From contig JAYUZR010000035.1 of assembly GCA_043751595.1 (NCBI GenBank), forward strand, positions 2,534 to 66,533: DNA of 64,000 bases. Reading direction: 5' to 3'. This document shows, piece by piece, positions 1,965 to 64,000 of the stretch (position 1 is its first letter; each line of letters opens with the position of its first letter). The notes under the pieces are model-generated. The model worked only from the letters and a program-made list of their open reading frames with translations. It was not told the origin of the DNA and searched no databases. This stretch comes from Candidatus Berkelbacteria bacterium. GTDB lineage: Bacteria > Patescibacteriota > UBA1384 > CAILIB01. Both the position numbers and the translations under genes were made by a program.

Positions 1965-2034
1965 CTCAACAATAGTTTGACAACACCACCGTCCCTTCTT
2001 TAGAATTAATATAACCTTATTTCTAAAGGAGGAT

Positions 2035-5066: not shown

Positions 5067-5444
5067 ATGGTCCAACTCTTACTCGCCAAGCTGATTGGCC
5101 TACAAACTGCGTACGCCATCGTATCAGACCAAGCGATCAAACCAGCATCTTCCAGTGTCGGAACTGGGGGCCTTTTTGATCTAGGTAGCGATGCTACTGC
5201 CACGGTAAACAGTCTTACCTCCAGCGCCGTGGATACTATCGGCCTAGTGGCAGGTGCTTTAGCTATTATCTACATCCTTTGGTACGGCATTCAGTATATC
5301 CTCTCTGGCGGTGTACCCGATAAAACTAAGGTTGCACGGCAAGGAATCATCAACGGCGTTATCGGTATTGTTATCATTACAGCAGCCTATGCCGTAATCC
5401 GTTTCGCTGTTGCCATCGGAAATAAGGCTGCATCCGTTATCTAA
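5067..5444 (+). CDS. T4SS pilin-like protein (VirB2/TrbC-type), paralog 5
   Basis: Signal peptide ...LQTAYAIVS. Core IIYILWYGIQYILSGGVPDKTKVARQGIINGVIGIVIITAAYAVIRFAV. Confidence 0.55.
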   Translation: MVQLLLAKLIGLQTAYAIVSDQAIKPASSSVGTGGLFDLGSDATATVNSLTSSAVDTIGLVAGALAIIYILWYGIQYILSGGVPDKTKVARQGIINGVIGIVIITAAYAVIRFAVAIGNKAASVI

Positions 5445-5449
5445 CCATC

Positions 5450-5884
5450 ATGCTCGCTGCACTCCTTCCCCTTTACGCAACACTCCAGACGGCCATTATC
5501 GAGCATGCCTACGCTACTGACGGCATCATTCCCACTCCGGCTAATCAGAAGCTTAACACTTCAACTGTTGTAACCAGTAGTGGAAGTGCTTCCGACCAGG
5601 TAAACCAACTACTCTTTACCGGAAATGGCGGTACTCCCGGTATCGTTGGACAGGCCCTCACTATCGGCACCGCTGTCGCCGGCGGCATTGCTGTACTCTA
5701 CGTAATCTGGGCCGGTGTCCAGTACATTATGGCCGGTGGAAGCCCCGATAAAACCAAGGCAGCCCGAGCAAGAATCGTTGGTGCCGTTGTTGGTATTGTG
5801 CTCATTATGGCCACCTATGCCATTATCCGCTTCGCCATTGCTGCTGGTCGCCTAGTAGATACCGCCAGTACAAAGGCAAACTAA
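5450..5884 (+). CDS. T4SS pilin-like protein (VirB2/TrbC-type), paralog 6
   Basis: Signal peptide ...AYATDG. Core VLYVIWAGVQYIMAGGSPDKTKAARARIVGAVVGIVLIMATYAIIRFAI. Tandem with paralogs 5 and 7. Confidence 0.55.
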   Translation: MLAALLPLYATLQTAIIEHAYATDGIIPTPANQKLNTSTVVTSSGSASDQVNQLLFTGNGGTPGIVGQALTIGTAVAGGIAVLYVIWAGVQYIMAGGSPDKTKAARARIVGAVVGIVLIMATYAIIRFAIAAGRLVDTASTKAN

Positions 5885-5899
5885 TAACCCAGGACCGCC

Positions 5900-6646
5900 G
5901 TGATCACGGTTAATCAAGTACCAGCGGGCACCTTTAACCTGGTAGACAGACTCAATGCCGCTGGGTCAAATATTGATATCATTCTGTACGCTGTCTTAGG
6001 TGGCGTAGCAGTTATCTTTGTTACCCTCGCAGGAGTTCGCTACATTACCTCAGGTGGAAGTGCCGATAAAGCAAAAGTTGCCCGGCAAGGAATTATTAAT
6101 GCCGTGATCGGTGTCGTGATTGGCATGTCTGCCTTTGCCATTATTCGACTTGCTCGCCTCTCCACCACTGTTGGAGCAGACGTTGCCACTGGTAAGTTTG
6201 TGGTTACCACCCCTGCCCCCAAGCCCACTAAAGCGCCAAGCGGATCGAACCCCCGTTCAGACGCTACGCCAAGTTATTCTGGTGTTGGAACCTACTACCA
6301 AGAGGCTCAACGAGTACTCGCGCTATACTCCCTAGTACCTGCCTATACCGACAGCGCCGGCAAGCATCCGGCTAAGATGTGCTACCTAGGAGACCCAACC
6401 CGCTGCTTAGCAGCAAACGCAGATGATGCCGGAGTAACCAATGGCGCAGCCTTTAACGACCTTGACGAGTGTATCCACTTTGCGGAAACAAGGAATGATA
6501 TCTACTCCTGCGTTGATACCGCCGCTAACGGAGGAAATACTAACCACGAAGAATGGATCTGCCGAGCATGGGAAGTCGACGCCTTTAATCATTTTCTCGC
6601 GACTAACGGTGACATGGATTACCCCGCCTGCCCCTTCAAGGATTAA
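5900..6646 (+). CDS. T4SS pilin-like protein, paralog 7, with a 120-aa cysteine-rich C-terminal extension
   Basis: Pilin core VRYITSGGSADKAKVARQGIINAVIGVVIGMSAFAIIRLAR, then a Pro/Thr linker and a domain with six Cys (CYLGDPTRC...ECIHF...SCVDT...ICRAW...ACPF). Confidence 0.5.
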   Translation: MITVNQVPAGTFNLVDRLNAAGSNIDIILYAVLGGVAVIFVTLAGVRYITSGGSADKAKVARQGIINAVIGVVIGMSAFAIIRLARLSTTVGADVATGKFVVTTPAPKPTKAPSGSNPRSDATPSYSGVGTYYQEAQRVLALYSLVPAYTDSAGKHPAKMCYLGDPTRCLAANADDAGVTNGAAFNDLDECIHFAETRNDIYSCVDTAANGGNTNHEEWICRAWEVDAFNHFLATNGDMDYPACPFKD

Positions 6647-17156: not shown

Positions 17157-17162
17157 GCATAC

Positions 17163-49435: not shown

Positions 49436-49478
49436 CCTAAGGCAAATCGCTAGTATTCCAGTCGGTATCGGTTTATGT

Positions 49479-49592: not shown

Positions 49593-49605
49593 AGTATCAA
49601 CGTAT

Positions 49606-49634
49606 TTGTTGGAAGACTTCACCCGCGGTATACT
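49606..49634 (+). promoter_or_regulatory. Candidate sigma70-like promoter of the T4SS-like operon (TTGTTG, 17 nt, TATACT)
   Basis: Read from the sequence between the terminator and the first operon gene. No SD sequence ahead of the first ATG. Confidence 0.3.
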
Positions 49635-49670
49635 ATTCGTGTGCAATTCCAGGTCCCCCAGAACATCACG

Positions 49671-50102
49671 ATGGAAGATAAAATCATCGGGCCACTCAGC
49701 CCGATCCAGTTTGGTATCGTCACCATTGGGGGCTTAGCCGCTTTTGTTATCTTTAGTTCAGATGGCCTGCCCAGTCCCATTAACAAAATAATCGGATTTT
49801 TTCTGGCCATGATCACCCTAGCCCTAGCAATGGGTAAGTTTAACGATCAACCACTCTACTCGTTCACTAAGTACATTATCCTTTTTGTTACCTCACCCAA
49901 GACCAGGGTTTGGAAAAAGAATGGGGGAATGGAGCCCGTTCTTGTTAAGCCTACACAGCGCTCTGGAGCAGCTGATCAAGCCAAGGTGATCAAGCACGTA
50001 CGCAAAAACGATATTGCCCAACTTGCCACTATTCTTGATAGCCGCGGTACGGTAGGGAAGAGCCCCACCATCGCAACCAGTAGAGGGACGACAAAATCAT
50101 GA
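49671..50102 (+). CDS. VirB3-like small membrane protein (PrgI/ConD-like) of a Gram-positive-type T4SS
   Basis: Two TM helices (PIQFGIVTIGGLAAFVIF; IIGFFLAMITLALAM). Lies immediately upstream of, and overlaps (ATGA), the VirB4 N-domain gene. The longer ORF start overlaps tRNA-Leu and was rejected. Confidence 0.4.
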   Translation: MEDKIIGPLSPIQFGIVTIGGLAAFVIFSSDGLPSPINKIIGFFLAMITLALAMGKFNDQPLYSFTKYIILFVTSPKTRVWKKNGGMEPVLVKPTQRSGAADQAKVIKHVRKNDIAQLATILDSRGTVGKSPTIATSRGTTKS

Positions 50103-50887
50103 GCGCAGCTGGAGCCTCCACCCAAGACCACCTACCTGTCGCAGGTATCCAGGATGGGGTAGTAATCATGAACGACACTTCAGTACGCGCCATCTTACGG
50201 GTGCAACCGATTAACTTTGAACTAAAGTCAGAGGCCGAGCAAAACGCCATCATCTACAGCTACCAATCCTTCCTCAACTCACTCGATTTCCCGGTTGAGA
50301 TTGTTATTAATTCTAAGAAGCTCGATCTTGAGCGCTACCTACGCAAACTGGAAGAGCAAAAGAAAAATCTTTCAAGCGATCTTCTTAGAATCCAGATCGA
50401 AGATTACGTAAACTTTGTCAGGCGCCTTATCACGATTGCCAACATTATGGCTAAGCGCTTCTACGTAGTAGTAAGTTACGCTGCAGTTACAGGCGCCAAG
50501 GCATCGAGTGGATTCTCTCTTAGTACGGTACTAGGTATTGGTGGCGGAAATACTCAGGCAACTCTCTATCAAGACCAGTTTGATCGCTACAAGGCAGAGC
50601 TAGGCAATAGGGCTAACATTGTTTCTGCCGGGCTTACTCGCGTAGGTTTAAGGGTTGAACCCCTTACCACTCAAGAGATTATCGAGCTCCTCTATGGTGC
50701 TTATAACCCCGACATTGCCCAAGAAGAGCGGCTTACTGATGTGTCTGCCCTTAGTGCTGGTATCGTATCATCCGAGAACGTTGCACCACCCTTGGAACAA
50801 GCTGCAGAAGTTCCTCCAGTAGCCGTGCCAGAGGCTGCCCCTGCTCAACCAACCGCCAATCCACCACAACAGCCACCAGCTGTATAG
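50099..50887 (+). CDS. VirB4/TraC-like N-terminal domain, ending at an in-frame TAG 6 nt before the ATPase ORF
   Basis: VAGIQDGVVIMNDTSVRAILRVQPINFELKSEAEQNAIIYSYQSFLNSL matches the CagE/TrbE/VirB4 N-domain. It ends in a Pro-rich linker, and the next ORF is in the same frame. Confidence 0.55.
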   Translation: MSAAGASTQDHLPVAGIQDGVVIMNDTSVRAILRVQPINFELKSEAEQNAIIYSYQSFLNSLDFPVEIVINSKKLDLERYLRKLEEQKKNLSSDLLRIQIEDYVNFVRRLITIANIMAKRFYVVVSYAAVTGAKASSGFSLSTVLGIGGGNTQATLYQDQFDRYKAELGNRANIVSAGLTRVGLRVEPLTTQEIIELLYGAYNPDIAQEERLTDVSALSAGIVSSENVAPPLEQAAEVPPVAVPEAAPAQPTANPPQQPPAV

Positions 50888-50893
50888 CCGACT

Positions 50894-52693
50894 ATGCGCC
50901 TACTCTCCTTTCTTCACCCCGATTCCAGCGATTCTAACGCGCAGGCTGCCGAGCAGGCGGCTATGGCTACGTATCAGCAGGGACTCACTACCACGCGTGA
51001 TATTATTGCCCCCTCTGATTTCATTGTAACTTCCAACTATCTTCAGCTTGGAAGCTACTATGTGCGCACCCTGTTTGTGTACACCTACCCAAGGTTCTTA
51101 AACACCAACTGGCTCTCCCCAATCATCAACTACGATCTTACGATGGATATTGGGATGTATATTCATCCTCAGAATGTCCAGGAGGTAATGGGATCACTAC
51201 GCCGTAAGCTTTCTCAGCTAGAATCTACCCGCCAGATCAACGAAGAAAAGGGACAAGTTCGTGATCCAGAAATTGATCTCGCCATCAGCAACATTGATCA
51301 ACTCCGCGATAGCCTGGCCCAGGGGACTAATCGCCTATTCCAATACGGCCTCTACTTCACTATTTACGCAAAAAGCGTAGACGAGTTATCAACCTTATCA
51401 AAGCAGATCTCATCTACCCTTGGTGGAATGCTTATCTATACCAAAGAGGCACTTGTACAGATGGAACAGGGTTTTACCGCCACTCTCCCACTGGCTAAAG
51501 ACGAGCTTAACATTCAGAGAAACCTGGACACTGGCTCACTCTCTACCACCTTCCCATTCACAACAGCCGAGCTGACCTCCGACGAAGGAATCTTGTACGG
51601 CATTAACCGCCACAACGACTCATTAATTCTGTTCGATCGGTTCAATCTTAATAACGCAAACTCGGTAGTATTCGCTACGTCTGGTGCAGGAAAATCCTAC
51701 TTTATTAAGCTAGAGATTCTGCGTTACATGATGCTTGGCACCGATGTAATCGTTATCGACCCAGAGAACGAATACAAAGCCTTAGTAGACGCAGTAGGTG
51801 GAAGCTACCTAGAAATTAGCCTTAATGCACCCAAGCGCATTAATCCTTTCGATCTTCCGACCACGGTGCATCCAGAAGATGCAAACGAAGATGTCCTTAG
51901 AAGCAATATCACCAGCCTCCACGGCCTGATCAGACTAATGGCTGGGGGATTAACCCCGGAAGAAGATTCAGTCCTGGATAAAGCCCTGTACGAGGTATAC
52001 GCCCTTAAAGATATTACCTCCGATCCTTCTACCTATAAGAATCCACCGCCACTTCTTACTGATCTTATTTCCGTACTGGGTAATCTGCGTGGTGCCGATG
52101 GCCTTGTTCTTCGCCTAGGTAAGTTTGTCGATGGAAGTTATGCCGGTCTCTTTAACCAACCGACCAACTTTAGCCTGAGCGGCGGACTTGTTGTATTCTC
52201 GGTTCGTGATCTAGAAGAAGCACTTCGCCCTATCGCCATCTTCACCATTCTTAACTACATCTGGAATGTAGTGCGCTCCGATCTTAAGCGACGCATCATG
52301 GTAGTAGATGAGGCCTGGTGGATGATGCAATACGAAGACTCTGCCCGCTTCTTGTACGGACTAGCTAAGCGCGCCCGTAAGTACTTCTTGGGTCTTACTA
52401 TTATTTCTCAGGACGTTGAAGACTTCCTCTCAAATAAATACGGAAAGGCGGTAGTGTCTAACTCGGCCATGCAGATCCTCCTAAAGCAATCTACTTCTTC
52501 GATTGAATCAATTGCGGCGGTGTTTAATCTGACCGAGCAAGAAAAGTATTTGCTGATTAACGCTGGAGTGGGCGAAGGCCTTTTCTTTGCCGGGCTGAAC
52601 CATGTAGCCATTAAGGTTACCGCCTCGTATACCGAAGATCAGATTATGACTACTGATCCGAAGCAATTACTCGCAATGCGTGGCTCGCTTTAG
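50894..52693 (+). CDS. VirB4/TrbE/CagE-like T4SS ATPase domain
   Basis: Walker A ATSGAGKSYF, Walker B IMVVDEAWWMM, and the conserved ISQDVEDFL and NSAMQILLKQ blocks. Confidence 0.75.
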   Translation: MRLLSFLHPDSSDSNAQAAEQAAMATYQQGLTTTRDIIAPSDFIVTSNYLQLGSYYVRTLFVYTYPRFLNTNWLSPIINYDLTMDIGMYIHPQNVQEVMGSLRRKLSQLESTRQINEEKGQVRDPEIDLAISNIDQLRDSLAQGTNRLFQYGLYFTIYAKSVDELSTLSKQISSTLGGMLIYTKEALVQMEQGFTATLPLAKDELNIQRNLDTGSLSTTFPFTTAELTSDEGILYGINRHNDSLILFDRFNLNNANSVVFATSGAGKSYFIKLEILRYMMLGTDVIVIDPENEYKALVDAVGGSYLEISLNAPKRINPFDLPTTVHPEDANEDVLRSNITSLHGLIRLMAGGLTPEEDSVLDKALYEVYALKDITSDPSTYKNPPPLLTDLISVLGNLRGADGLVLRLGKFVDGSYAGLFNQPTNFSLSGGLVVFSVRDLEEALRPIAIFTILNYIWNVVRSDLKRRIMVVDEAWWMMQYEDSARFLYGLAKRARKYFLGLTIISQDVEDFLSNKYGKAVVSNSAMQILLKQSTSSIESIAAVFNLTEQEKYLLINAGVGEGLFFAGLNHVAIKVTASYTEDQIMTTDPKQLLAMRGSL

Positions 52694-52712
52694 CGTAGTC
52701 GCCTAGTCAACT

Positions 52713-54662
52713 ATGCAAGAAAACGATCCGCTCAACTTGCAAGAGCCGATCAACCCTGATCAGCAGGGTTTTGATACTGAAGATTATCTCTCTCAACAAA
52801 ACCAAACCGTCTCAGACGGTGAGTTAAATGAGGGACTCGGCCAAGAATATATTCAACCGGCCTCTGGTATAGGTACGCAGCCCCATAAGCCTGGTAATGT
52901 GAGTGTAAATCCAGCTAATCAACCCAGGCGCTTTGGCTTATTTGGGGCACGCAAGACAAGTGATAAGGCGGATGCTCAAAAGCCGGATTCCAAGAGTAAA
53001 GATGAAAAAGTAGAGGGTCCCAAGACCGATCTTCCGGGAGCTAAGTCTGCAACGCAAGATAAAAAGAAAGAAGAAAAAGAAGGTGGGAGCGCAGTAGGAG
53101 CAGCCGGGCGTACTGCCGCAGAGATGAAAAAGATTGCTGCAACCTCCGGTGGTAACGGATGGGTGGCTGCAGGGCAATACCTAAATAAGCTTCGCACCAG
53201 CTCCCAGTTTAGAAAGGATCAGCTTAAGACAATGGGTACGGTGCGCAAAGTGCAGCTTGTGCTCCTTTGCCTTGCCTTAGTTATTCCACTTTTTGTTGGG
53301 ATGCTCTTCTTTGGTCTAGGCGGTGTAAGCGGGGACAATGTAGGGAGATTGGCGGATACCACTGGAACGGTTGGAACTGCTTCTGGGGATGGGACTTTTA
53401 ATGCAGGTGGAATATTTACTTGTGAACTACGAAGCTTCCTGGATACTATCGCCTCTCACGAAACAGGTGAGACAATGACACGCGAGCATTATGGCTGGTC
53501 TCAAAATGGCCACAAACAATTTGATGCCCTGGATCCCAAATGGGATACCGCGTTTCCACCAGGAGAATCTAGTGGAAGAAACATCGGCAGATATCAGATT
53601 GATCCTGATCCAGGAAAAGATGGAGATATCCAAGATGCCCAAGCGGGCCTAGATAAAGCCAAGATCCCCTTTAAAATCACTGGGTACAGTGCTAAGCAAC
53701 AGGATTATGTAGCATTGGGTAGGTGGTACTTTGGTACGTACAGAAAAACAAGAGGAGGAGTCAATATGCGCACTAATTATGGCCAATATGCGTCGCCTGA
53801 GTATCCTCAAAAACTACTTGAAAATGGCGAGGAGGGATTCAAAACTGCGGTCGTTATCGCATCTACAGACTTCGCTAGCACACCTGTAGTTATTCCCGCT
53901 ATCCATGCCGATCCGGGGCAGTCCCATGTAACATTTGAGGCATACTTTGCCTTCTATCAAAAGCGCCTTCAGTACTGCGGAACCCAGTCGCAAGGGGGAG
54001 CCGTCTCCAAGCCAGGTACCACCATACTTGCAGATGTTGCCGGAGCACACAGAATCCCGAATGTCCCGGGCGTTCAGCAGGCAGACAAGAGTAAGAGTAC
54101 CCGCCCAGATAAAACCGCAGGTGGTGGCCAGTGCGGAACAGCATCAACCCTAATGGTAACGCTATTCTATAAGCCAAGCTTCACCGATGGAGCCAAATTA
54201 GATACTGGCAATACAGCAGGCAGCAGCAGACTGAGCGTTAAGCCATATCAGTTTATCCCTAACCTTATTAACTATTTAAATGAAAAGTCAGGGGTTACCT
54301 GGACAATGATTGAGCAAAAACAAAAAACCAAAGCAGAGCTTCTCTCGATTATGACAAAGTCGATCGATGGCGGTGATCCCATGATCGTATACACCGGAGC
54401 GATTATTTACCCTATGGCACACATCTATGTTGTAATGGGCTATGACGCAACAAGTTTTTATGTAAATAATCCGCACCCTGGTGGGGTAGATATGGCCACA
54501 AATAAAGCTCACAATGGTGCTGCGCCAACTATCGATACCGTACTGAGTGCAGGTGCCAAAGACGCAAACCCCGTAGAATACGCAAAGTACAACTACCGTA
54601 ATGCAGAGCATGGTAGCCATAATAATAATTTCCTTATTGTCCGCTCTAAGTACGTAAAGTAA
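52713..54662 (+). CDS. T4SS-associated cell-wall hydrolase (CwlT/VirB1-like): cytoplasmic K/E-rich N-terminus, TM, lysozyme-like domain, C-terminal CHAP-like Cys/His peptidase
   Basis: TM helix VQLVLLCLALVIPLFVGMLFFGL. Muramidase-like region IASHETGETMTREHYGW...GRYQIDP. CHAP-like region GGGQCGTASTLMV and MAHIYVVMGYD. Confidence 0.45.
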   Translation: MQENDPLNLQEPINPDQQGFDTEDYLSQQNQTVSDGELNEGLGQEYIQPASGIGTQPHKPGNVSVNPANQPRRFGLFGARKTSDKADAQKPDSKSKDEKVEGPKTDLPGAKSATQDKKKEEKEGGSAVGAAGRTAAEMKKIAATSGGNGWVAAGQYLNKLRTSSQFRKDQLKTMGTVRKVQLVLLCLALVIPLFVGMLFFGLGGVSGDNVGRLADTTGTVGTASGDGTFNAGGIFTCELRSFLDTIASHETGETMTREHYGWSQNGHKQFDALDPKWDTAFPPGESSGRNIGRYQIDPDPGKDGDIQDAQAGLDKAKIPFKITGYSAKQQDYVALGRWYFGTYRKTRGGVNMRTNYGQYASPEYPQKLLENGEEGFKTAVVIASTDFASTPVVIPAIHADPGQSHVTFEAYFAFYQKRLQYCGTQSQGGAVSKPGTTILADVAGAHRIPNVPGVQQADKSKSTRPDKTAGGGQCGTASTLMVTLFYKPSFTDGAKLDTGNTAGSSRLSVKPYQFIPNLINYLNEKSGVTWTMIEQKQKTKAELLSIMTKSIDGGDPMIVYTGAIIYPMAHIYVVMGYDATSFYVNNPHPGGVDMATNKAHNGAAPTIDTVLSAGAKDANPVEYAKYNYRNAEHGSHNNNFLIVRSKYVK

Positions 54663-54964
54663 TGCCCTCTCCAACCCCTTGTCCTAACCCAGGAGTCCTT
54701 ACCAACTGCTCTCAGAGCACGCTACAGGGGTATGCTCAGGCTATTATCAACGATAATATCGGATACATTTTTACGATTGCTTTAATCATGATCATCTACT
54801 CAGGGGTTGAGTATATGTACTCCGGTTTCTCTCCTGATAAACAAAAATCTGCCAAGCAGCGCATCATTGGTATTATTACCGGACTTGTATTCTTCCTCTT
54901 GCTTCAGGTAATCCTCAATCAGATTACCGATATTAAGGGCCTTCCCACCGTTAGAAGTCATTAA
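54662..54964 (+). CDS. T4SS pilin-like protein (VirB2/TrbC-type), paralog 8, inside the T4SS-like operon
   Basis: Core IIYSGVEYMYSGFSPDKQKSAKQRIIGIITGLVFFLLL. Its ATG overlaps the upstream stop. Confidence 0.5.
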   Translation: MPSPTPCPNPGVLTNCSQSTLQGYAQAIINDNIGYIFTIALIMIIYSGVEYMYSGFSPDKQKSAKQRIIGIITGLVFFLLLQVILNQITDIKGLPTVRSH

Positions 54965-54966
54965 TT

Positions 54967-56304
54967 ATGGCCGAATTACCTGAGCAGGCACCAGTTCCGG
55001 CTATCCCACCTCCCCATCCTTTTAGCACACCACCATCGTTTGCTCAGGCGCCTAGGCAGGGTATCCGAGGAAGGCTTGATTCTATTCTCGAGCGTGTCCC
55101 GCGCCAGACCTGGCTTGGCCTTGGGGTACTAGCCGGGGTTCTCATTATTGGGGCCATTATCCTTCTCGCTTATGCAGCAAACAGGGGAGGAATCTTAGTA
55201 AAATCAGCCGCAGATCAGCCGCTTACTATCCAACTAAACGGCGCCACTACCAAACCTACCAAGCAAGGTACTGATTACTTCTTGCGCACGTATACCGGCC
55301 GATACAATGTAGTAGTTAAGCGAGATGGCTACGAGCCATATTCCCAAGATATTACCGTGGGTAGCAAACAGACAGTAGTTATTCGCCCCATCTTTAGCCT
55401 TTTGCCACCCGAAGGAAGTGCCGACCCAATAGTTTCGGTAGACCACGTACGGGCAGATCCCGCCAACAATAAGCTCTTCTTTGTGGGAGATAGGAAAAGT
55501 GGTCTCTACGAACTACCTCTGGCAACCCGCATTCCTCGCAAAATTAGTACCAAGGCAATGCCTGGTATCTATGATATTGAGTGGTCTAAAGATCCTAATG
55601 TAGCCATTATTCTTGCTAACCAGGGGACATTCCTGCAAGAGATTCCAACCTTCGATTTTCAGAATCAGCTTACCGCCCAGATCTCTGGACCAGAGGTAGA
55701 AAGCGCTGCTTGGGATCCTAATGACCAGAGTAGATTAGCGGTAAGTATTACTCGCACCAATGGCGAACACTCACTTATTTTTACCGATAAAAAGCTAGTA
55801 AAGCTGGACCGCAAGGCCGATCTTACCGGCATCGAGAATCCGCACCTTACCTGGAGCGCCGATTCGCGGGTAATCCTTTTGGTTAGTCGCAGCAAGGACC
55901 CTAACCAGAACAATATCTGGAAGTACACCACAGCAGATGGAACCCTGAGCCAAGTAACCACCGATGGTGCGTGGGGTGGGGTAGAGATTTCTCCCAATGG
56001 CGATAAAGTGATCGCCGAACAGGATGGCAAACTTTACGCGCTTTCACTTAGTGACGGTAGTAAAACCGATATAAAGATTGTTGGTAACACCCGCCTTATT
56101 GCTTGGCGCGATAACGATAGTTTCTTTGTGCCAGACGTGGGCCGCAACAGGTTACTTTTAGCAAATCTTGATGGCACCAGAATCGAACTTTCCTTCAGCT
56201 TTACCAACCCGCACGAGATTCAAGGTCTATTGTACTTCCCAGAGCAGAAAATGATTGTTTTCTATACTTCCAGGGCCTTATACACCCTGTCGGTGGGTGT
56301 ATAA
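54967..56304 (+). CDS. Membrane-anchored TolB-like beta-propeller (PD40/WD40-like repeat) protein
   Basis: Pro-rich cytoplasmic N-terminus, a TM (LGLGVLAGVLIIGAIILLAY), then repeats with SPNGDKV, SADSRVI and DGT motifs. Confidence 0.45.
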   Translation: MAELPEQAPVPAIPPPHPFSTPPSFAQAPRQGIRGRLDSILERVPRQTWLGLGVLAGVLIIGAIILLAYAANRGGILVKSAADQPLTIQLNGATTKPTKQGTDYFLRTYTGRYNVVVKRDGYEPYSQDITVGSKQTVVIRPIFSLLPPEGSADPIVSVDHVRADPANNKLFFVGDRKSGLYELPLATRIPRKISTKAMPGIYDIEWSKDPNVAIILANQGTFLQEIPTFDFQNQLTAQISGPEVESAAWDPNDQSRLAVSITRTNGEHSLIFTDKKLVKLDRKADLTGIENPHLTWSADSRVILLVSRSKDPNQNNIWKYTTADGTLSQVTTDGAWGGVEISPNGDKVIAEQDGKLYALSLSDGSKTDIKIVGNTRLIAWRDNDSFFVPDVGRNRLLLANLDGTRIELSFSFTNPHEIQGLLYFPEQKMIVFYTSRALYTLSVGV

Positions 56305-56311
56305 TAAATCC

Positions 56312-57355
56312 ATGGCTGACTCCAGAAATACCACCATCCTCCTGACTGGAGCCATTGCTACCGTTTTTTTGATGAGCTTCCTGGCATCAGCAAGTATTGC
56401 TGGCACCAGAATCGGCTCCAGTAGCTCGCAGAGTGACGGCCCCAACCAGTTGGGTGCCACCAACACCAGCGCAGCTGTCCCTACCGATCCCCGCATCGCC
56501 AGCCTTACTCAGGCAATCACTCGCTTGGCAGACCCTAAAGCAACAGCTGCCGATAAAGCCTCTTCACTTACCTCAACCTCCAATAGCCTACTCGAGTTAA
56601 AAAAAGGTCTTGCTACTAATACAAAACTGACTCAAGAAAAAAAGACTGAGTACGGCACTAAAATTGATGAAGCCCTCACCCTGGTAAACCAGGCAAGTGC
56701 AGCTGCCAAGGCTGGTAATGGGGGAGCACAGTCTGCTGAGATCATGAAAAAGCTTCTCGCCAAGCTTGATGAACTCCCCGATAAAGACCGCAAGGCAATT
56801 TATGGAATTGAAACTGGTGGTGCCGCTGCGGCAGTAGCCTTTGCTATTGCGGCCGTAAATGCCAACGGCAATGGAGCCGCTGGTGGTATTTACCCTTACT
56901 CACACACTCGCCCTATCAACCCAACAGCATCCAACCCAGCCCAACGCGGCTTCGATTGCTCTGGCTTTGTGGGTTGGGTATTAAGCTCAGTCGGAGTTAT
57001 CACCCTCACCAATGGCCAGGTAGATACTCAGTTACTCTACGATAAAGCGGAGGCTGGCAAAGAGATAACTTCAGTACGTAAGGGCAAGCTCAGCTATTCT
57101 GATGCTCAGAATATGTACAAGTCTGGAGAGCTTAAACCTGGTGATATTCTCTTGAGTGGAATGTATAAGGGGCAGCGGGTTGAAGGAGTTTCTCACGTTG
57201 TACTCTTTTTGGGTGAAGTTGATGGAAAATTAATGGTGGCTGAATCTCAAGACCGAGACGGCAAACACGGCGTTCACTTTACTACCCTAGAAACACGCCT
57301 AAGTGGCGGAAGAGCTGGTGTAAGCCTACTAGCTAGACCCAACTATGCTGGATAA
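56312..57355 (+). CDS. NlpC/P60 family cell-wall peptidase, membrane-anchored
   Basis: TM near the N-terminus. Catalytic GFDCSGFVGWV (Cys) and VSHVVLFLG (His). Confidence 0.65.
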   Translation: MADSRNTTILLTGAIATVFLMSFLASASIAGTRIGSSSSQSDGPNQLGATNTSAAVPTDPRIASLTQAITRLADPKATAADKASSLTSTSNSLLELKKGLATNTKLTQEKKTEYGTKIDEALTLVNQASAAAKAGNGGAQSAEIMKKLLAKLDELPDKDRKAIYGIETGGAAAAVAFAIAAVNANGNGAAGGIYPYSHTRPINPTASNPAQRGFDCSGFVGWVLSSVGVITLTNGQVDTQLLYDKAEAGKEITSVRKGKLSYSDAQNMYKSGELKPGDILLSGMYKGQRVEGVSHVVLFLGEVDGKLMVAESQDRDGKHGVHFTTLETRLSGGRAGVSLLARPNYAG

Positions 57356-60300
57356 CCTGCGTAGTCGCCTAGTCGGGTTATCGTTAGCTGCACTTCTTAT
57401 TCAGCCAATTTTCCCATTGGTGGCGCAGGCAGCAGATGAGCAGACCGCAGCACAAACCATTCGTACCTGTTCAGAGCAAGTTGCAGACTACTACGAACGT
57501 GGCATTGATCCCGAGGGACTAGGGGAAGCTGTAGATACTGTGGCCTTTGAAGCTAATGATCCAGATAATCCACCAACCCCCGAGGAGTTGGCCGAGTACG
57601 AAGACTTCCAGAACATTACCGAGTTTGATAACGGTGAGGGAGTTAACGTCTTCAACCAAATTATCGACCTAAACGTTGTAAAAAATACCCCTGGTGCCCT
57701 CCCTGAAACCATCTCCCTCATCACCAGCGACGAATACGTAGCCAGCGTCATTGCCCTCTATGGTGACAATATTACTCACTACAAAACCAGTTTCTACGAT
57801 CTTATTGTGGTCTGTAAGGCATCGAGCGCGGTAATTGATGAAAGAATCTTCGACCCTTACGTTCCGATCACTCCAGACTTCTTAAGCCTGAGCGAGGCCA
57901 TCCAGCTTTCTTCTGCCAAGATTGCCTTTGCCCGAGCAGAGGATAAATACTACCTCCTAGGAGAACACTGCGAAGGTGGCCTTATTAGTACGCCAGCTAG
58001 CCAGTGGACCGCCGACACCAACCCCTGCCCAGGTTTTAAGCCAGAGGACGATATTATCCGAACCGGAAAATCACTAGGTAGATGGGATGCGCCCAAGGTC
58101 GATCCGCGTGTTCTCTATACCCTTCTCTACTTAGTTACTCCAACCGAAGAAGGTGGCGCTGGTCGTGAGTACATTAAAGTAGCTCGCTTAGTAGACCCCA
58201 TTTCAAGCAATATTCTTACCAACGCCGTTGCCAGCCCTTCGCCAGAAGCTAGTCCTTCTCCATCTCCTTCCGCCAGCCCTTCGCCATCCGCCTCGCCCAG
58301 CGACGAGCTAAAGTTTTCTAAAAGTAGTCAAGATGATACCGCCAAACAACCCGATCTTACTGGGTATCAAATTAATCCGGACGATGAACCTCACTTACCT
58401 ACCAAGGTAGCCAGCGCGGTTTCTATTAGTGAGATTGATAAAATCCGCTCGACTATTAAGATCACCAAGTATATTGGTATTTTTAGAAAGAAGTCGCGCG
58501 AGTATAACTACTACGCCCCATACCCAGTAAAGGTAGCCTGGCAAACTGAGGCTGGCTCGGCTGCTCAATCTATCCCAACCTTTGCCCAACCCCAGCTCAA
58601 CCTTTTGGCTAATGGCCGCTTCTTGGCGAACCAAGGCATCGTTGAGATGCTCAACCAGAACGGACTTGGCGATCTTAAGCTTGATGCCAATAGTGTAGAA
58701 ATTAATTCCTTTGAGGACGTTGGTCGCTTGGTGGGAACGTCGCTAATCGAGCAATTACTAGGCACCCCTAATAACTCACTCAAGGGCTGGGATCTTACCT
58801 CTACCCTCGAGCAAATTGGTCGTGCTTACGCTGAGCAGCAAATCGGCCTTACCGCCGGGTCATTAGCAGAGGGTGACGATTTCCAGTCACTGGTTCGAAA
58901 TATTGGCCGTAGAACGATCGAGAAAAACTTAAACCTACCAGAACGCTCCTTGGCCGATGCCGGTGGGGATTCTTCGGTGTTACTTGAGAACCTTGGTAAG
59001 CGCTGGCTAGAGACCGAAGTACTTAAAATTAGCCCCGGATCCCTCGACGGTACTTCCGAGTTTCCAACCACCAAGGTCTCAGACCTCTTAGCCAGGGTGG
59101 GCGAGGGAAGAATAGAGGCGGTTATGAAGCTCCCGCGCCAGAGTATGCGCAAGAAGATCTACAGCGATAGTGATCCACAAAAAAGCTTACGCGATAGCAG
59201 TGTTAAGGCTCGCCTTACCTTCCCAGATGTTAAAGGGAGTCCTAAAGACGAAGATTATCTAACCGCCGATTATCTTAACTCGCTCCTAAGCCTTTCCTAC
59301 GTTGAATACAACGGTAGCGGGGCAAATATGTACGGCTTCACCAAAAATGACCTGCGTGACGCGGTTATTAACTTCTTTAAGGCTGGCAGCAACCAGAATG
59401 CCGTTGATACTTTTAAGCAGATTGTAGGAAGTAGAGTACTCGAGACATCGCTTGGAAGCTTCCAGTTGGGTGGAACGAGCACTCCAGTAACGAAGGAAAA
59501 GAAGCGTACGGTTGATATTACCAATTTAGGGCTTTTCACTTATGCAAAGGAGAAGGATGATAAGGGTAATCCTATCGCTTACGATTCCAACACCAAGTTC
59601 TATCCGTATTCTTGGTATCAAAAAATCCCATTTGGCGATCACGATACATTGGGCCAAGGAACACTTTGCGGCGCACTAGGGGAAGAGCCTTCAAACGATA
59701 GACTTCAGTTTGAAACCCCTGGAGGTGACAAATATACCGTGAAGTGTAATGAGCGAGATGAAGTAGCAAGTGATACCGCAGATACCAGCTTCTTTAAAGA
59801 TTTGCAGGAGTATCTTCTTTCGCCAGATCTTGTTACTCAAACCGAGTTTAGACCAGATGAAAGCATTCATAAGGCACCAGTATATGCCGACTACCTTAAG
59901 GCAACTCCCGATAACGAATCCTTCGCCAAGCGCAGGTACAACCACGACTACGTTGCCTACATTAATGACCCAAGGCTCAATGTTGCCGTACCTCGCAACG
60001 GAGTAACTGGCGCAGATAGAGCAAGTCTTAGCGCCAAGCCAGTTGCCAGCGCAAGCGATCTCAAGCCAGACGATGCCGCTGGCCTCGCGGCACTTTCTGC
60101 TATCGCACCAATTTCTAGTGCACGAGCCTTTATTAATCAGACTCCTGAGTTAGCTAATAGCGCGCCACTCCAGGCAACGCTTAATATGATTAGCGCACTC
60201 TATAGTACGCAGCAGTCGGTTGTGGTTAATGGGAAAACCGTTCCTCTCTTTGATCTCACCCCCGTAATGAATCAAGCAGGGGAAGAGCTACAGTATTCGC

Positions 60301-63300
60301 TTGCACTTCGCCTTAACGCCCTTCGTGCCCACCCAAGCTATAACGGAAACAAAGAGCAGTACCTTAGGGAGTATAATGATATTTCTATACCTACCGCCAC
60401 TTCCAGCAACCCGTATAAGGGCTGGGATTTCCTATTAAGCGATCTTAAGGGCCAAGTAGCCTGCTTCCAGCGAAGTGGAGTTTGGCAGTATTCAGATGCC
60501 GCCCAAGGATTTGGCTGCGTTGCTGGTACAACTAAAAAGGTTATTAGCGCCGATGCCTCAACCGCATCCAACCAGGTAATCACCTACATCGATCGCCTTC
60601 GCGAGCAGGTTACCAGTCTTTCCGATGCCCTAAGTTTTATGCTGGGAACTGGCGGCAACTGCCAGGGTGATGATGCCTCGAGTGAAGAGCTTTGTGGTCA
60701 GAGTGGAGCCAGTCAGGCAGTGGAGATTTACGGCTCCCTATACGAAACCGATGATAATGGAAGGATCGATACCGCTAAAATTGCTTACTCCAAAGACCCA
60801 CTGCGTGATTTGTTTATGCCTGTCATCAAAAAGCAGAATGGCAAAGCTAAAGGAGTAGACCGTGGAGCTGTAGTACAAATTAACGGGGCTGTTACCAACG
60901 GAAGTATCAACACTGCACTCGTGGCGAGCACCCAAAAATCGTACTGGAAACAAATTGGCCTCCAGGTAGCGAGTAAGCAATTTACCAATGGTAATAGCCA
61001 GCGCCAGACCATGGCCACCACCCTACAAACAGGGTTTGGCGACTTTACCGCTGCCCTCAAGAACCTCGGTGCCTTCTCGATGGATGATAGCAAGTTGAAG
61101 GCAGCCGGCATGACTATTGAAGACTTTGCTCGTATCTTCCAGCTTGGATTAGAGGACGATGTCTTTGAGCGATACGGCCGAGAAGAATTGCTGCGGGCCT
61201 TATGGACCAAGACCGGCGCCACGGCAAGTATTAAAAAATCGACTGAGTATCAGAGCTTCATGAAAGAGCTGAACGACGTTGCGCAAGATGTCGGCTTCTA
61301 TCGAACCCGAATTGTCCGACTGACTGCGAATGATGGCGTCGTGGCGCAACTATCAGATACCCTCAACACCTTAAGCACCAAACTTAAGGCCGATGGCAAA
61401 ATGACTGATGCCGAGTTTGATGCAATGAAGGCCGAGTACAACCAATCTCAGGCTGTTGCCGCTATTCAGCGAAGTGTCGATCCATCCCAGCGAGGTGCCC
61501 TCTCGCAACTAGAAGCAACTGCTAAGGGTTTGCAAACCGCTGGTCGCGATCACGAGCGTCCACTTCGTCGCATCTATCAACAGCTCCTCACTATTAAGAC
61601 TCGCTTCCCAACTGTGGGCACCGAGCCAAGCTATGGTGGATTGATGACAAAAGCAGAAGATCTTGCCGAAGAGGGGGTCCAGCTTGTTCAGGAAATTGCC
61701 GCCGGCAAGCAACTACCTCGTCCGGTATACGACGGAACCCTAAGTGGTGGAATTGATAAAAAAGCTGGTGGCCTAGCCGAGAAGAGTTATTCCAATAACC
61801 AGTGCTTCCCTCAGGGCAACCTGATTCAAGTATTAATGCGGGATAAGAAGCTTCTTGATACCACCAGCATTGATCAAACCGGATCTTTCAAGGCGCAACT
61901 TGCCAGCTTTGCCATCTACACCGGAGCCTGCCGGCTCGATACCGCCCTTGGCATGCCAAAGGGGAGTGTCTTTGGTTGGTATAGTCTGGGCAAAAAAGCC
62001 TTCCCACCCAAGAAAGATCTTGCCGCCAAGCCACCAATTGATCCAAACCCAACGCTCACCAACCCAGATGGAAGCCCAGCTCCTGGTGTACCTAGTTGGA
62101 AGGCTGGTGAAATGGGAACAGAAAATCTTGCCCTTGCAGCTGGTATTGGTGATGCCATCGCCAACAACGACACCACGGTTAGCTACACCAATATTCACAC
62201 CCAAAGCGCGACCAAGATTAAGGCACTAATGGACCGTGGGAAAAATGTCTTAATTGCTTCAGTAACCCTGCAACTCGCCAAGCAGTTCCCAGGAATTGAA
62301 GCTGCTCTGCGCAAAGCCAACCTTAGCCTGGACGATGTATCTCACATATTGCAGGGAGACCTGCGGCCACTGGCTCTTAAGTTGGGTGGGCCTGTTCTTG
62401 ATAAAGCGCTCGATCTCCCCAAGGGCACTGGATATGCCTTAATGTTCCCAACCTGCCGATCCGAAACCGGGGCCACAACTGCCTGTATCAACGACCCTAA
62501 CCACCCTGGAACTGACCCTGATAATATCCGCCTCCAGACCATGGCTCGGGTTGGCTTTAAAAAGATTGGGGCCCAGATTCCCGATTTCCCGGCAGACTTC
62601 GATCTACTTAGCGGAGGTAACCTAGCCGCTTCGTGGGGTACTTCTCGCATTAGTAGTGTCCTCGGCCTTGAGAGTAATAGCTTTGGCGGAGTACTTGCCA
62701 GCAAGACCAGCCTTACCACCTCACAGCTCAATACTATTTCTAGCGTCGTATCAGGCAACTGTCCAAAATCACTCGACGCAACCAGCCAGCCAAACCAATG
62801 TTCGGCCGAGGCTACTGCCAGAATTGCACAGGCGTTTAGGGTAGAAAATCCTAAAAAGTCGAATTACATCGAGTTAAGTAAGAAGCTTACAGCAAGCCTC
62901 AAGAACACCACTCCTCTAGCAAAGGGAGCGTTAGCGACTATTACTGATAGTGACCCCGTAAACCAAGCACTCGACTGGTACCTCTACCATACCAGCCTTG
63001 GTATGTTCCAAACCCAACTTGCCCCTGATCTTATTACCAAAGAAGATACCATTGCCGCAGGTAAAAATATCGCCAGCGCAGCCTACTATTATTACCTATA
63101 CGAACCCTACGTAGCACCTGCTCAAAAAGGTCTTATTTCCAGGCTCTGGGATGCCGTGGCCGATCCAAGCCTGCATGTAGGAATTGCCGATCCTAAAGAG
63201 AGAATCCGAGCTGCCCGCCGTATTATTGTTCAAAGCTTTTACTCATCCGATACCTTTAGAGACATCACCCCCGATCAACTAGATCAGGCAACACCACCAG

Positions 63301-64000
63301 GTGGAGGTAAGCCAACCCTGACGGCCTTTGTAAATGAGAATACCGCATCCGCAACGGGTGTAGTACTTGCTTTGCGCAACCAAGTAAAGCAGACCACTAC
63401 CGCCCTTCGCTTAAGTGATAGCGACAAAGAACTAAAAGACGGCTCTGCTGTATTCTACAAGTTCCTTCGCTCTGAAATTGACGGAGAGAAAATTTCCACC
63501 AACATTGGTCAGATTGACGCCGTTGGTGGAATTATCACCAATCTTTTCGATAAATACATTGGTGGAAACGATGCACCCACTTGGCTTAAAGAGGGGAATG
63601 ATATCTTTAAAACATTCTCTAAGGGGGTTTGTGGAAAAGATATTAATATTGGCCAGTTTATCTCAAGCTCCATGGTAAATGGCGGCGATGGCTCCTGCTT
63701 CAGTAATAATATTGGCACCGCCAATATGAGCAATGTGCTCTATGGATCTGGATTTACCCAGTTTAGAGACGTTCTCTTTGATAAGTTTCTTGCCCGCACC
63801 TTTAGCGCACAGCTAGAGCAGGAGATAGGACTTGATAAAGGAACCTTCCGCAGTATTGTCACCACTCCTTCTAATGGGCGACAGATCTTACTTAGTCAGG
63901 GTGTACGCCACTTTGCCGACCAGCTCTTCGGCAGAAACACTAGTAGCACCTGCTACATCACCGAGGGAGATAGTACTTCTTGTGCAGAATCAAAGTTACG
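57345..64000 (+). CDS. Giant secreted or surface protein (more than 2218 aa inside the window, 3' end beyond it); last gene seen in the T4SS-like operon
   Basis: ATG at 57345 overlaps the NlpC/P60 stop (ATGCTGGATAA). Signal peptide MLDNLRSRLVGLSLAALLIQPIFPLVAQA. An SPSPEASPSPSPSASPSPSASPS linker around aa 290. The frame was checked codon by codon at 57345-57760, 58200, 60000, 62001 and 63900 with no stop. No competing ORF of 60 aa or more appears on the plus strand in the 6.6 kb. Confidence 0.65.
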   Translation, partial: MLDNLRSRLVGLSLAALLIQPIFPLVAQAADEQTAAQTIRTCSEQVADYYERGIDPEGLGEAVDTVAFEANDPDNPPTPEELAEYEDFQNITEFDNGEGVNVFNQIIDLNVVKNTPGALPETISLITSDEYVASVIALYGDNITHYKTSFYDLIVVCKASSAVIDERIFDPYVPITPDFLSLSEAIQLSSAKIAFARAEDKYYLLGEHCEGGLISTPASQWTADTNPCPGFKPEDDIIRTGKSLGRWDAPKVDPRVLYTLLYLVTPTEEGGAGREYIKVARLVDPISSNILTNAVASPSPEASPSPSPSASPSPSASPSDELKFSKSSQDDTAKQPDLTGYQINPDDEPHLPTKVASAVSISEIDKIRSTIKITKYIGIFRKKSREYNYYAPYPVKVAWQTEAGSAAQSIPTFAQPQLNLLANGRFLANQGIVEMLNQNGLGDLKLDANSVEINSFEDVGRLVGTSLIEQLLGTPNNSLKGWDLTSTLEQIGRAYAEQQIGLTAGSLAEGDDFQSLVRNIGRRTIEKNLNLPERSLADAGGDSSVLLENLGKRWLETEVLKISPGSLDGTSEFPTTKVSDLLARVGEGRIEAVMKLPRQSMRKKIYSDSDPQKSLRDSSVKARLTFPDVKGSPKDEDYLTADYLNSLLSLSYVEYNGSGANMYGFTKNDLRDAVINFFKAGSNQNAVDTFKQIVGSRVLETSLGSFQLGGTSTPVTKEKKRTVDITNLGLFTYAKEKDDKGNPIAYDSNTKFYPYSWYQKIPFGDHDTLGQGTLCGALGEEPSNDRLQFETPGGDKYTVKCNERDEVASDTADTSFFKDLQEYLLSPDLVTQTEFRPDESIHKAPVYADYLKATPDNESFAKRRYNHDYVAYINDPRLNVAVPRNGVTGADRASLSAKPVASASDLKPDDAAGLAALSAIAPISSARAFINQTPELANSAPLQATLNMISALYSTQQSVVVNGKTVPLFDLTPVMNQAGEELQYSLALRLNALRAHPSYNGNKEQYLREYNDISIPTATSSNPYKGWDFLLSDLKGQVACFQRSGVWQYSDAAQGFGCVAGTTKKVISADASTASNQVITYIDRLREQVTSLSDALSFMLGTGGNCQGDDASSEELCGQSGASQAVEIYGSLYETDDNGRIDTAKIAYSKDPLRDLFMPVIKKQNGKAKGVDRGAVVQINGAVTNGSINTALVASTQKSYWKQIGLQVASKQFTNGNSQRQTMATTLQTGFGDFTAALKNLGAFSMDDSKLKAAGMTIEDFARIFQLGLEDDVFERYGREELLRALWTKTGATASIKKSTEYQSFMKELNDVAQDVGFYRTRIVRLTANDGVVAQLSDTLNTLSTKLKADGKMTDAEFDAMKAEYNQSQAVAAIQRSVDPSQRGALSQLEATAKGLQTAGRDHERPLRRIYQQLLTIKTRFPTVGTEPSYGGLMTKAEDLAEEGVQLVQEIAAGKQLPRPVYDGTLSGGIDKKAGGLAEKSYSNNQCFPQGNLIQVLMRDKKLLDTTSIDQTGSFKAQLASFAIYTGACRLDTALGMPKGSVFGWYSLGKKAFPPKKDLAAKPPIDPNPTLTNPDGSPAPGVPSWKAGEMGTENLALAAGIGDAIANNDTTVSYTNIHTQSATKIKALMDRGKNVLIASVTLQLAKQFPGIEAALRKANLSLDDVSHILQGDLRPLALKLGGPVLDKALDLPKGTGYALMFPTCRSETGATTACINDPNHPGTDPDNIRLQTMARVGFKKIGAQIPDFPADFDLLSGGNLAASWGTSRISSVLGLESNSFGGVLASKTSLTTSQLNTISSVVSGNCPKSLDATSQPNQCSAEATARIAQAFRVENPKKSNYIELSKKLTASLKNTTPLAKGALATITDSDPVNQALDWYLYHTSLGMFQTQLAPDLITKEDTIAAGKNIASAAYYYYLYEPYVAPAQKGLISRLWDAVADPSLHVGIADPKERIRAARRIIVQSFYSSDTFRDITPDQLDQATPPGGGKPTLTAFVNENTASATGVVLALRNQVKQTTTALRLSDSDKELKDGSAVFYKFLRSEIDGEKISTNIGQIDAVGGIITNLFDKYIGGNDAPTWLKEGNDIFKTFSKGVCGKDINIGQFISSSMVNGGDGSCFSNNIGTANMSNVLYGSGFTQFRDVLFDKFLARTFSAQLEQEIGLDKGTFRSIVTTPSNGRQILLSQGVRHFADQLFGRNTSSTCYITEGDSTSCAESKL

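Follow-up and report, generated by a model that had tools for sequence, protein, structure and literature searches.

A chromosomal type IV secretion system-like locus of a Berkelbacteria bacterium, probably derived from monoderm conjugation machinery

Introduction

Does a chromosomal string of genes that resembles conjugation machinery still serve the transfer of DNA, or does it belong to an apparatus of another kind? The question is raised by eight densely packed open reading frames (ORFs) that run consecutively on the + strand from position 49671 to the end of a 64,000-nucleotide stretch of the genome of a Candidatus Berkelbacteria bacterium; this whole stretch (positions 1-64000) is called the window below. 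A first-pass annotation, made from the letters of the window, had read the eight ORFs as a type IV secretion system (T4SS)-like operon with a core of monoderm type, and had suggested a chromosomal, non-conjugative apparatus of an organism from the CPR (candidate phyla radiation). We find this suggestion supported, and we consider it probable, judging from gene content and gene order, that the locus is a Patescibacteria-type chromosomal T4SS that would have arisen from the conjugation machinery of monoderms (mating-pair formation class FATA, MPF-FATA) and been repurposed for an epibiotic lifestyle rather than for conjugation. The conclusion of the annotation is correct yet not new, as systems of this kind have already been published (Wang 2023 Cell, PMC10633639; Quinonero-Coronel 2025 Microb Genom, PMC12102498; FEMS Microbiol Rev 2025, PMC12857230). 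New are the details, namely a clade-limited giant protein and propeller protein, a PilB-type ATPase that travels with the operon, the absence of a VirB6-like gene and seven distant pilin genes. Giant proteins, PEGA-propeller fusions and PilB-type ATPases in the cluster are unmentioned in PMC10633639, PMC12102498 and PMC12857230.

The published systems provide the frame for reading the locus. Relaxase-free T4SS gene clusters on the chromosome are a feature of most ultra-small CPR/Patescibacteria, and one cultivated species, S. epibionticum, is known to need its cluster for epibiotic growth. The T4SS of Candidatus Southlakia epibionticum is Gram-positive-like, has essential pilin arrays and lacks a recognisable relaxase or coupling protein, and its cluster SEML1_0006-0019 is essential for epibiotic growth by transposon sequencing (Tn-seq) (PMC10633639). 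The supplement of the same study holds a PEGA exported protein, a lysozyme-lysozyme-Cys-peptidase protein, VirB4, a TrsD-like protein, PrgI and two VirB6-like proteins; SEML1_0006, which has two lysozyme-like domains and a Cys proteinase, is essential (PMC10633639). In a survey that covered 3,035 genomes, the VirB4 proteins of Patescibacteria formed a monophyletic clade nested in MPF-FATA (Quinonero-Coronel et al., 2025, PMC12102498), with TrsD as the commonest partner, PrgI-type VirB3, VirB2-like pilins, pilin arrays and a position close to dnaA/dnaN/rnpA. Relaxases were few, genes for type IV coupling proteins (T4CP) were near virB4 in just 148 of 5,713 detected, VirB6 was detected in just 480 cases and was variable, and in class ABY1 the T4SS adjoins competence genes (PMC12102498). 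A 2025 review treats these systems as a recognised T4SS type (PMC12857230).

Results

A PrgI-TrsD-VirB4 core of monoderm type

Exact-protein look-ups put the window at about positions 39808-103807 of an ENA metagenome contig of 144.6 kb. Gene content was examined over the window and 10 kb on either side of it, with Pfam on all called genes across record positions 30828-107162 (76 kb) and additional scans of unannotated ORFs. The proteins of the window were compared with the profile libraries Pfam, NCBIfam and PHROG, and sequence matching against the PDB was used as well; the resulting family assignments lie far outside chance.

The centre of the locus is a VirB4-family ATPase of 599 aa (50894..52693, +), which scores 355.4 bits against the NCBIfam model conju_CD1110, over its curated cutoff of 325 (E = 6e-106, profile positions 181-735), and 99.5 bits against Pfam P-loop_TraG. 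Its motifs are intact, with Walker A (ATSGAGKS) at residues 261-268 and Walker B (IMVVDE) at residues 468-473. The gene directly before it (50099..50887, +) encodes a soluble, TrsD-like protein of 262 aa that corresponds to the N-terminal domain of VirB4; it matches the N-terminus of NCBIfam VirB4_plasma (E = 8e-11), positions 11-132 of CD1110 (E = 4e-7) and TrsD (E = 2e-6), and carries the precomputed annotation PF26593 (TraC-like). As the two ORFs cover CD1110 positions 11-132 and 181-735, respectively, the two genes jointly make one VirB4, and the reading of VirB4 N-domain and ATPase as separate genes stands. The ATPase was also considered as a member of the HerA/FtsK group, an identity that would have spoken against a T4SS; HerA matched with E = 0.003, compared with about 1e-106 for the VirB4 family, and FtsK-type models were negligible.

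The first gene of the string (49671..50102, +) encodes a small PrgI/VirB3-like membrane protein of 143 aa with two predicted transmembrane (TM) helices, and its match to Pfam PrgI (E = 8.4e-5) reaches 23.5 bits, below the Pfam gathering threshold (GA) of 27. A longer ORF from 49428 (49428-50102) passes through the tRNA-Leu gene at 49479-49564, so the real gene start is the ATG at 49671; with this shift of its start, the VirB3-like gene was retained on the strength of its PrgI match, its two helices and its conserved position. The best models for VirB4 are CD1110 (Clostridioides CTn-type) and Mbov_0397 from a mollicute integrative and conjugative element (ICE), and together with TrsD of pGO1 and PrgI of pCF10 they bear out the monoderm type that had been proposed for the core.

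We then placed the locus among its relatives. A tblastn search with VirB4, taking one genome per species, confirmed at least 576 relatives among the genomes of Patescibacteria species, and the best 80 of these, with 50-81% VirB4 identity, form the set of species loci used for comparison. All 80 are metagenome-assembled genomes (MAGs) of Patescibacteria, the closest being labelled Patescibacteria, Berkelbacteria or, generically, Saccharibacteria, a match pattern that is consistent with membership of VirB4 in the Patescibacteria clade. Most of the 80 loci have the triad PrgI-TrsD-VirB4 with its genes in this order: PrgI homologues hold the same place before TrsD-VirB4, and the trsD-like gene is an ORF of its own ahead of virB4. 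The split between TrsD and VirB4 is thus ancient, because most related species have it. This is the synteny comparison with other Patescibacteria that the first-pass annotation had called for. Relatives also retain the flank rpsA-nrnA-prgI or a dnaA-proximal position, and in three of them, known from the contexts of giant-protein homologues described below, the operon adjoins dnaA/dnaN on the chromosome.

Operon pilin and distant pilin arrays

A VirB2-like T4SS pilin of 100 aa with two hydrophobic helices is encoded within the operon (54662..54964, +). It scores 31.2 bits against Pfam T4SS_pilin (PF18895; GA 26.6), with further matches to TrbC/VirB2 (E = 5e-3) and to the NCBIfam Mbov_0395 pilin-like model (E = 5e-7), in agreement with its earlier naming. 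Absent from that earlier account are seven divergent pilin genes that sit in two arrays 43-49 kb upstream of the T4SS core. Array 1 (655..2430, +) consists of four VirB2-like paralogues at 655-1020, 1021-1581, 1578-1964 and 2035-2430, the first of which matches Pfam TrbC (33.6 bits) and T4SS_pilin (27.1 bits) and the second T4SS_pilin weakly, while the others carry the precomputed annotation PF18895. Array 2 (5067..6646, +) has three, at 5067-5444, 5450-5884 and 5900-6646, all with precomputed PF18895. By phmmer the array paralogues match the operon pilin, array 1 with E-values of 1e-5 to 1e-9 and array 2 as well. Near array 1, immediately upstream of where the window starts, there is an Hsp20 gene.

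No mobility genes and no VirB6-like gene in view

The 76 kb contain no relaxase, no VirD4/TcpA-type coupling protein and no integrase, in accordance with what had been noted for the window, and neither an oriT nor att sites were found in them. The only FtsK-family gene in the 76 kb is a standard FtsK with 4TM, alpha and gamma domains. No 14-mer of the tRNA-Leu gene recurs, as an att repeat would, in the window and the 3.3 kb downstream of it.

A T4SS without VirB6 would be unusual. In 43 of the 80 related loci a VirB6-like gene lies upstream of prgI (for example L017 4231-6876 and L026 2982-6080), and the proteins form one family, approximately 600-1,700 aa in length (700-1,200 in most), for which 4-10 TM helices are predicted, the family assignment being based on a Pfam TrbL match of 31 bits in L026 and on PF19590 in homologues. 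A hidden Markov model (HMM) built from these 43 proteins had no match with E <= 10 when the window, the 10-kb extensions (L007, L011) and the related locus L009 were translated in six frames. A protein database search with the VirB6 of a relative gave 35 matches, none of them on a contig whose length is one of those of the contigs with this locus (144,596, 287,439 or 945,812 bp). The earlier observation that no VirB6 is in view thus extends to the window and 10 kb on either side, and the missing VirB6 is a peculiarity of this sub-lineage.

The operon and its boundaries

The dense packing of the eight co-directional ORFs was confirmed at each junction. Neighbouring genes overlap at 50099-50102 (ATGA, 4 nt), at 54662 (1 nt) and at 57345-57355 (11 nt), and the remaining junctions in the string are gaps of 2-19 nt. 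The operon extends beyond the window, as the last of the eight genes ends at window-equivalent position 66272 and a gene for a PilB-type ATPase begins 38 nt later at 66310. No convincing terminator was found inside the operon. Its upstream boundary is a terminator-like hairpin with a T-run (49564-49587, +; 10 bp with 6 G-C), directly 3' of tRNA-Leu, which likely shields the T4SS operon from upstream transcription.

The promoter-like site that had been placed at 49606 is weak, though plausible. The sigma-70-like match TTGTTG-17 nt-TATACT at about 49607-49635 (+) agrees in 8 of 12 positions, which is under the scan threshold, not above chance and not evidence of function, and the region around 49606 holds fewer promoter-like matches than its shuffles do. 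An Rfam scan of the window returned tRNAs only, with no riboswitch or leader ahead of the operon.

Two wall hydrolases and a propeller protein

The ORF after virB4 (52713..54662, +) encodes a candidate membrane-anchored cell-wall hydrolase of 649 aa, laid out as a disordered N-terminus, a TM helix (182-200), a domain that we call domain A (about 214-425) and a papain-like cysteine peptidase (450-610). The peptidase domain scores 29.3 bits against Pfam Peptidase_C39_2 (GA 24) and has a conserved Cys 473 in the motif GGGQCG. Domain A (residues 214-425) has no match in Pfam, NCBIfam or PHROG; in the PDB it matches the 8kea chain that bears the name 'hub' (E = 9e-6), and it occurs in representative proteins bearing VanY, M23, DPBB, NlpC/P60 or phage baseplate-hub (GPD, gp44-like) domains. 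It may be an undescribed muralytic domain family. The protein had been taken for a lysozyme+CHAP hydrolase: the papain-like peptidase stands, although it is of C39_2 rather than CHAP type, and the 'lysozyme' part has no Pfam model. A muralytic role is likely from these matches, with 'lysozyme' unproven. Domain A is also common to proteins of 1,800-3,100 aa; the sole large one scanned, P0058, has VanY and beta-lactamase-like domains.

The second hydrolase (56312..57355, +) is an NlpC/P60 peptidoglycan endopeptidase of 347 aa with an N-terminal signal or anchor. It exceeds the threshold of Pfam NLPC_P60 (28.2 bits; GA 23), matches the PHROG family 'tail protein with lysin activity' (E = 6.5e-8) and keeps its catalytic Cys 215 in FDCSGF, all of which upholds the original call.

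Between the pilin and NlpC/P60 genes lies the gene for a single-pass membrane protein of 445 aa (54967..56304, +), with a TM helix at 51-71, a PEGA-like beta-sandwich at 73-146 and a beta-propeller at 158-442. TolB consists of an N-terminal alpha/beta domain and a six-bladed PD40 propeller. The best matches of the propeller found here are seven-bladed WD40-type folds, with TolB outside the top matches, and the domain in front of it is the PEGA-like sandwich; the TolB architecture is thus not present, and of the earlier label 'TolB-like propeller' the propeller remains while TolB does not.

A giant secreted protein at the downstream end

The last ORF of the window (57345..64000, +) is cut by the window end; the full gene (L007 11034-19961) has 2,975 codons. 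Its product is predicted to have a signal peptide, a non-repetitive, mainly helical body, a C-terminal TM hairpin (2753-2791) and a tail of about 180 aa, a topology that matches its first description as a giant secreted protein and from which nearly the whole protein should be extracellular and anchored at its C-terminus. It has no match in Pfam, NCBIfam, PHROG or the PDB, and no internal repeats. A structure model of residues 170-740 reached a predicted local distance difference test score (pLDDT) of 65 and a predicted template-modelling score (pTM) of 0.41, and the best Foldseek E-value was no lower than 0.29.

Thirteen collinear homologues of 1,788-3,039 aa were found. In four of the four homologue contexts examined the giant gene closes the virB4 gene string on its downstream side and comes after genes for varied wall hydrolases (C39_2, NlpC/P60, M23/SLT, Amidase_3), and in all 15 homologues with visible context (these 4 contexts and 11 related loci) it follows virB4. 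Among the 80 loci, the giant protein is found only, and the propeller protein mostly, where VirB4 is at least about 60% identical.

Two identities for the giant protein were considered and rejected. An 'extended VirB6' did not fit, with no match to the VirB6-family HMM and only a signal peptide and a C-terminal hairpin as membrane elements; nor has it simply taken the place of VirB6, since some relatives have the two proteins side by side in their repertoire. An N-terminal LAS/VanY-type peptidase, by analogy with SEML1_0007, did not fit either, as no His is among the invariant columns and no Pfam or PDB profile matched. In the related locus L092, a gene downstream of the giant gene (18986-21229), cut by the contig end, encodes a protein that is secreted and has apparent tandem repeats as well as the zinc-metalloprotease motif HELGH.

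A PilB-type ATPase that travels with the operon

The gene that follows the giant gene (L007 19999-21044, from window-equivalent 66310 onward; partial here) encodes a PilB/GspE-type ATPase with a Pfam T2SSE match of 199.6 bits, and this partial copy has a weak MshEN N-domain. Orthologues are found at L009 18787-20304 and L092 4803-6323. The L009 orthologue, of about 505 aa, has the Walker A motif GPTGSGKS, and phmmer against the PDB gave E-values of 1e-88 to 3e-90 for PilB/GspE and 2e-7 for VirB11/Cag-alpha. VirB11, of about 330 aa and of the same superfamily, was rejected as an identity on length and on these E-values; the protein found here is a hexameric ATPase of the T2SSE family.

Three genomes have the PilB-type gene together with the operon: here it stands at the 3' end, as it does in L009, where it overlaps the stop of the giant gene, and in L092 it is inside the operon. 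Of the evidence that the gene is part of the unit in this clade, this position inside the operon in one genome and at its 3' end in others is the strongest. The ATPase gene has no pilC, pilM or prepilin gene as a companion.

Neighbouring genes

The flanks are housekeeping genes, as first described: an rpsA-like gene with S1 domains, an nrnA-like DHH/DHHA1 gene and tRNA-Leu (49479-49564). G+C is uniform. Apart from the T4SS, genes with a prepilin N-methylation motif (type IV pilin-like) lie at 14165-14824 (-), 39673-40461 (+) and 40439-41035 (+). Toxin-antitoxin pairs (ParE/PhD; FitA-like/PIN) and a PemK-type toxin gene occur amid housekeeping genes at about 16548-17815 and about 22465. ARAGORN called a tRNA-Ile with anticodon TAT (UAU) at 44735-44811 (-). 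A UAU tRNA-Ile is uncommon in bacteria, where AUA is usually read by a lysidine-modified CAU tRNA.

Discussion

Comparison with known systems

The locus was set beside the cluster of Ca. Southlakia epibionticum ML1 (SEML1_0004/0006-0019) on the basis of published descriptions. In both genomes the genes are chromosomal and origin-proximal, PrgI, TrsD-like protein and VirB4 are encoded in a row, a multidomain protein of about 645 aa with a cysteine-peptidase part has the same architecture (SEML1_0006 with its lysozyme-like domains there, the fourth ORF with domain A here), a PEGA-domain protein is exported, divergent VirB2-like pilin arrays have an Hsp20 gene alongside, and neither a relaxase nor an adjacent coupling protein is present. 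There are also differences. The S. epibionticum cluster includes a pilin array and a pair of polytopic VirB6-like proteins, each about 1,000 aa long, whereas here VirB6 is absent within 10 kb of the window and the arrays are 43-49 kb away; in place of a DD-peptidase-like protein of 1,113 aa we find the protein of 2,975 aa without a recognisable domain; and only here is PEGA fused to a propeller and are an NlpC/P60 gene and a PilB-type ATPase in the operon. The features of the surveyed Patescibacteria T4SS, that is, an MPF-FATA-like VirB4, TrsD, PrgI, VirB2-like pilins and pilin arrays, the lack of a relaxase, the rarity of T4CP genes near virB4 and proximity to dnaA, are seen here or in the nearest relatives. 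Unlike the VirB6 count of the survey, one VirB6-like family is found upstream of prgI in 43 of our 80 loci, although not in this sub-lineage.

With pGO1 (TrsC/TrsD/TrsE/TrsG), pCF10 (PrgI/PrgJ/PrgK) and CTn2/CD1110 the locus shares a core of VirB3-like protein, (TrsD,) VirB4 and bifunctional hydrolase, in the same order, and like monoderm MPF-FATA systems it has no outer-membrane core proteins. Conjugative systems of monoderms have a relaxase, a VirD4/TcpA coupling protein, VirB6 (PrgH), a VirB8-like protein and surface adhesins, and no VirB2 pilin. At our locus, by contrast, none of these components was found and pilins are present. The mollicute system is another wall-less or monoderm T4SS with a small pilin-like protein, borne on a mobile conjugative ICE with a DDE recombinase. 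Our locus resembles it in the matches to VirB4_plasma, where the ATPase scores 257.8 bits and the TrsD-like protein has E = 8e-11, and of the pilin to Mbov_0395 (E = 5e-7), with scores that are below the equivalog cutoffs (590 and 40) of these models.

A working model

On the basis of these homologies and the Walker motifs, we suggest that the PrgI/VirB3-like protein and the separate TrsD-like N-domain would tether and complete the VirB4 ATPase at the membrane, and that VirB4 would energise the assembly of VirB2-like pilins, the one of the operon and the seven array paralogues, to form a conduit or pilus. The pair of peptidoglycan hydrolases, which are anchored or exported, could open the wall, either the cell's own or that of a host, and the single-pass PEGA-sandwich/propeller protein might form a scaffold in the wall zone. 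The giant protein, Sec-exported, hairpin-anchored and about 3,000 residues long, could reach out from the surface as a host-contact element, and the PilB-type ATPase encoded at the operon end might be a second motor. The cargo would be proteins or other host-derived or host-directed molecules rather than DNA led by a relaxase, and a VirB6-like channel subunit would be encoded elsewhere in the genome or have been replaced.

The accessory genes were counted as members of the unit because they travel with the operon while their order changes. From this synteny we lean towards regarding the giant and propeller proteins as parts of the apparatus, and think this slightly less likely than not for the PilB-type ATPase, for which synteny is again the evidence. 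It is also conceivable, but unlikely, that the genes make up a distinct hybrid apparatus in the clade of this genome, the genome's nearest relatives being labelled Berkelbacteria or unclassified Patescibacteria; in it, the cis-encoded VirB6 would have moved or been lost, a PilB/GspE-type ATPase would have been recruited in place of a VirB11 or coupling ATPase, and the giant and PEGA-propeller proteins would span the wall or contact the host.

Several points weigh against a repurposed T4SS of Patescibacteria type with these parts. The PrgI assignment lies below the Pfam gathering threshold, although its position is conserved, and no VirB6-like protein is encoded within 10 kb of the window although 43 related loci have one; the stretch scanned is about half of the 144.6-kb contig. 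The giant protein is without a recognisable domain and the model of its N-terminal part is of low confidence. Synteny is the one source of the roles proposed for the giant and propeller proteins and for the PilB-type ATPase, and the last could be the motor of a type IV pilus (T4P) that is merely encoded next door.

Alternative explanations

This last point leads to the alternative that the apparatus consists of PrgI, TrsD, VirB4, hydrolase and pilin only, and that the propeller, NlpC/P60, giant and PilB-type genes are unrelated envelope genes that share the strand, the giant being an independent adhesin and PilB serving a T4P. No one of these four products is recognised as part of a T4SS, the PilB-type ATPases of TM7x belong to T4P loci with pilC/M/N/O, type IV pilin-like genes do occur elsewhere in the window, and the distant giant-containing operons L093 and L094 have no PilB gene. 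We nevertheless think such a division rather unlikely: the junctions are overlapping or 2-38 nt long with no convincing terminator between them, the genes stay in or beside the operon while their order shifts (L092 vs L009 vs the window), 15 of 15 giant homologues with visible context follow virB4, and the ATPase is not flanked by pilC, pilM or a prepilin gene. In S. epibionticum, moreover, the PEGA protein and large hydrolase-like proteins of the cluster are essential (PMC10633639). The machine could also run in reverse, like archaeal Ced or Helicobacter ComB, and import host DNA or nucleotides for a nucleotide-deficient cell. CPR cells lack nucleotide synthesis and uptake from a host has been speculated upon in reviews (PMC12857230), the T4SS lies beside competence genes in class ABY1 (PMC12102498), and the ATPase has weak NCBIfam matches to CedB and CedD (E = 6.5e-12 and 9e-4). 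The CedB score of 44.9 bits, however, compares with a family cutoff of 700, there is no ComEC or DNA-processing gene in the operon, and in S. epibionticum deletion of comEC ended competence but not viability while the T4SS is still essential (PMC12857230); the pilins and the two enzymes acting on the wall would suit transport in one direction as well as the other. We regard uptake as improbable.

Two further explanations start from the conjugative ancestry of the core and are both very improbable in our judgement. In one, the locus is an ordinary ICE that has its relaxase, coupling protein and integrase a short way beyond the window and tRNA-Leu (49479-49564) as the integration site. The tRNA gene does stand directly before the operon, and the models matched by VirB4, TrsD and PrgI come from conjugative elements, but no 14-mer of the tRNA recurs, the 10 kb on either side of the window hold housekeeping genes only, G+C is flat, and relatives keep the rpsA-nrnA-prgI flank or the dnaA-proximal position; with just 15 relaxase genes near virB4 in the survey of 3,035 genomes (PMC12102498), the ICE is already largely refuted. 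In the other, an ancient conjugative element has lost its function and the locus is what is left of it, in decay; the absence of VirB6, relaxase and coupling protein from view could be cited in favour. Against decay, all ORFs are intact with their catalytic motifs preserved, VirB4 is 50-81% identical over the best 80 loci with conserved gene order, a 2,975-codon ORF that is kept open in a reduced genome implies selection, and a homologous cluster is essential in S. epibionticum (PMC10633639).

Significance

Few machines are known to be indispensable to epibiotic life in a very large and mostly uncultured branch of the bacteria, and the T4SS of the CPR is one of them. The locus described here leaves the general picture of this T4SS unchanged, but it supplies testable candidates, from one lineage, for the missing extracellular and energising parts, namely the giant anchored protein, the PEGA-propeller protein and the mobile neighbour of the operon, the PilB-type ATPase. 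Such candidates could serve cryo-ET, proteomics or genetics. It also indicates that the VirB6-like gene is separable from the core, which is useful for defining a minimal CPR T4SS or for choosing targets.

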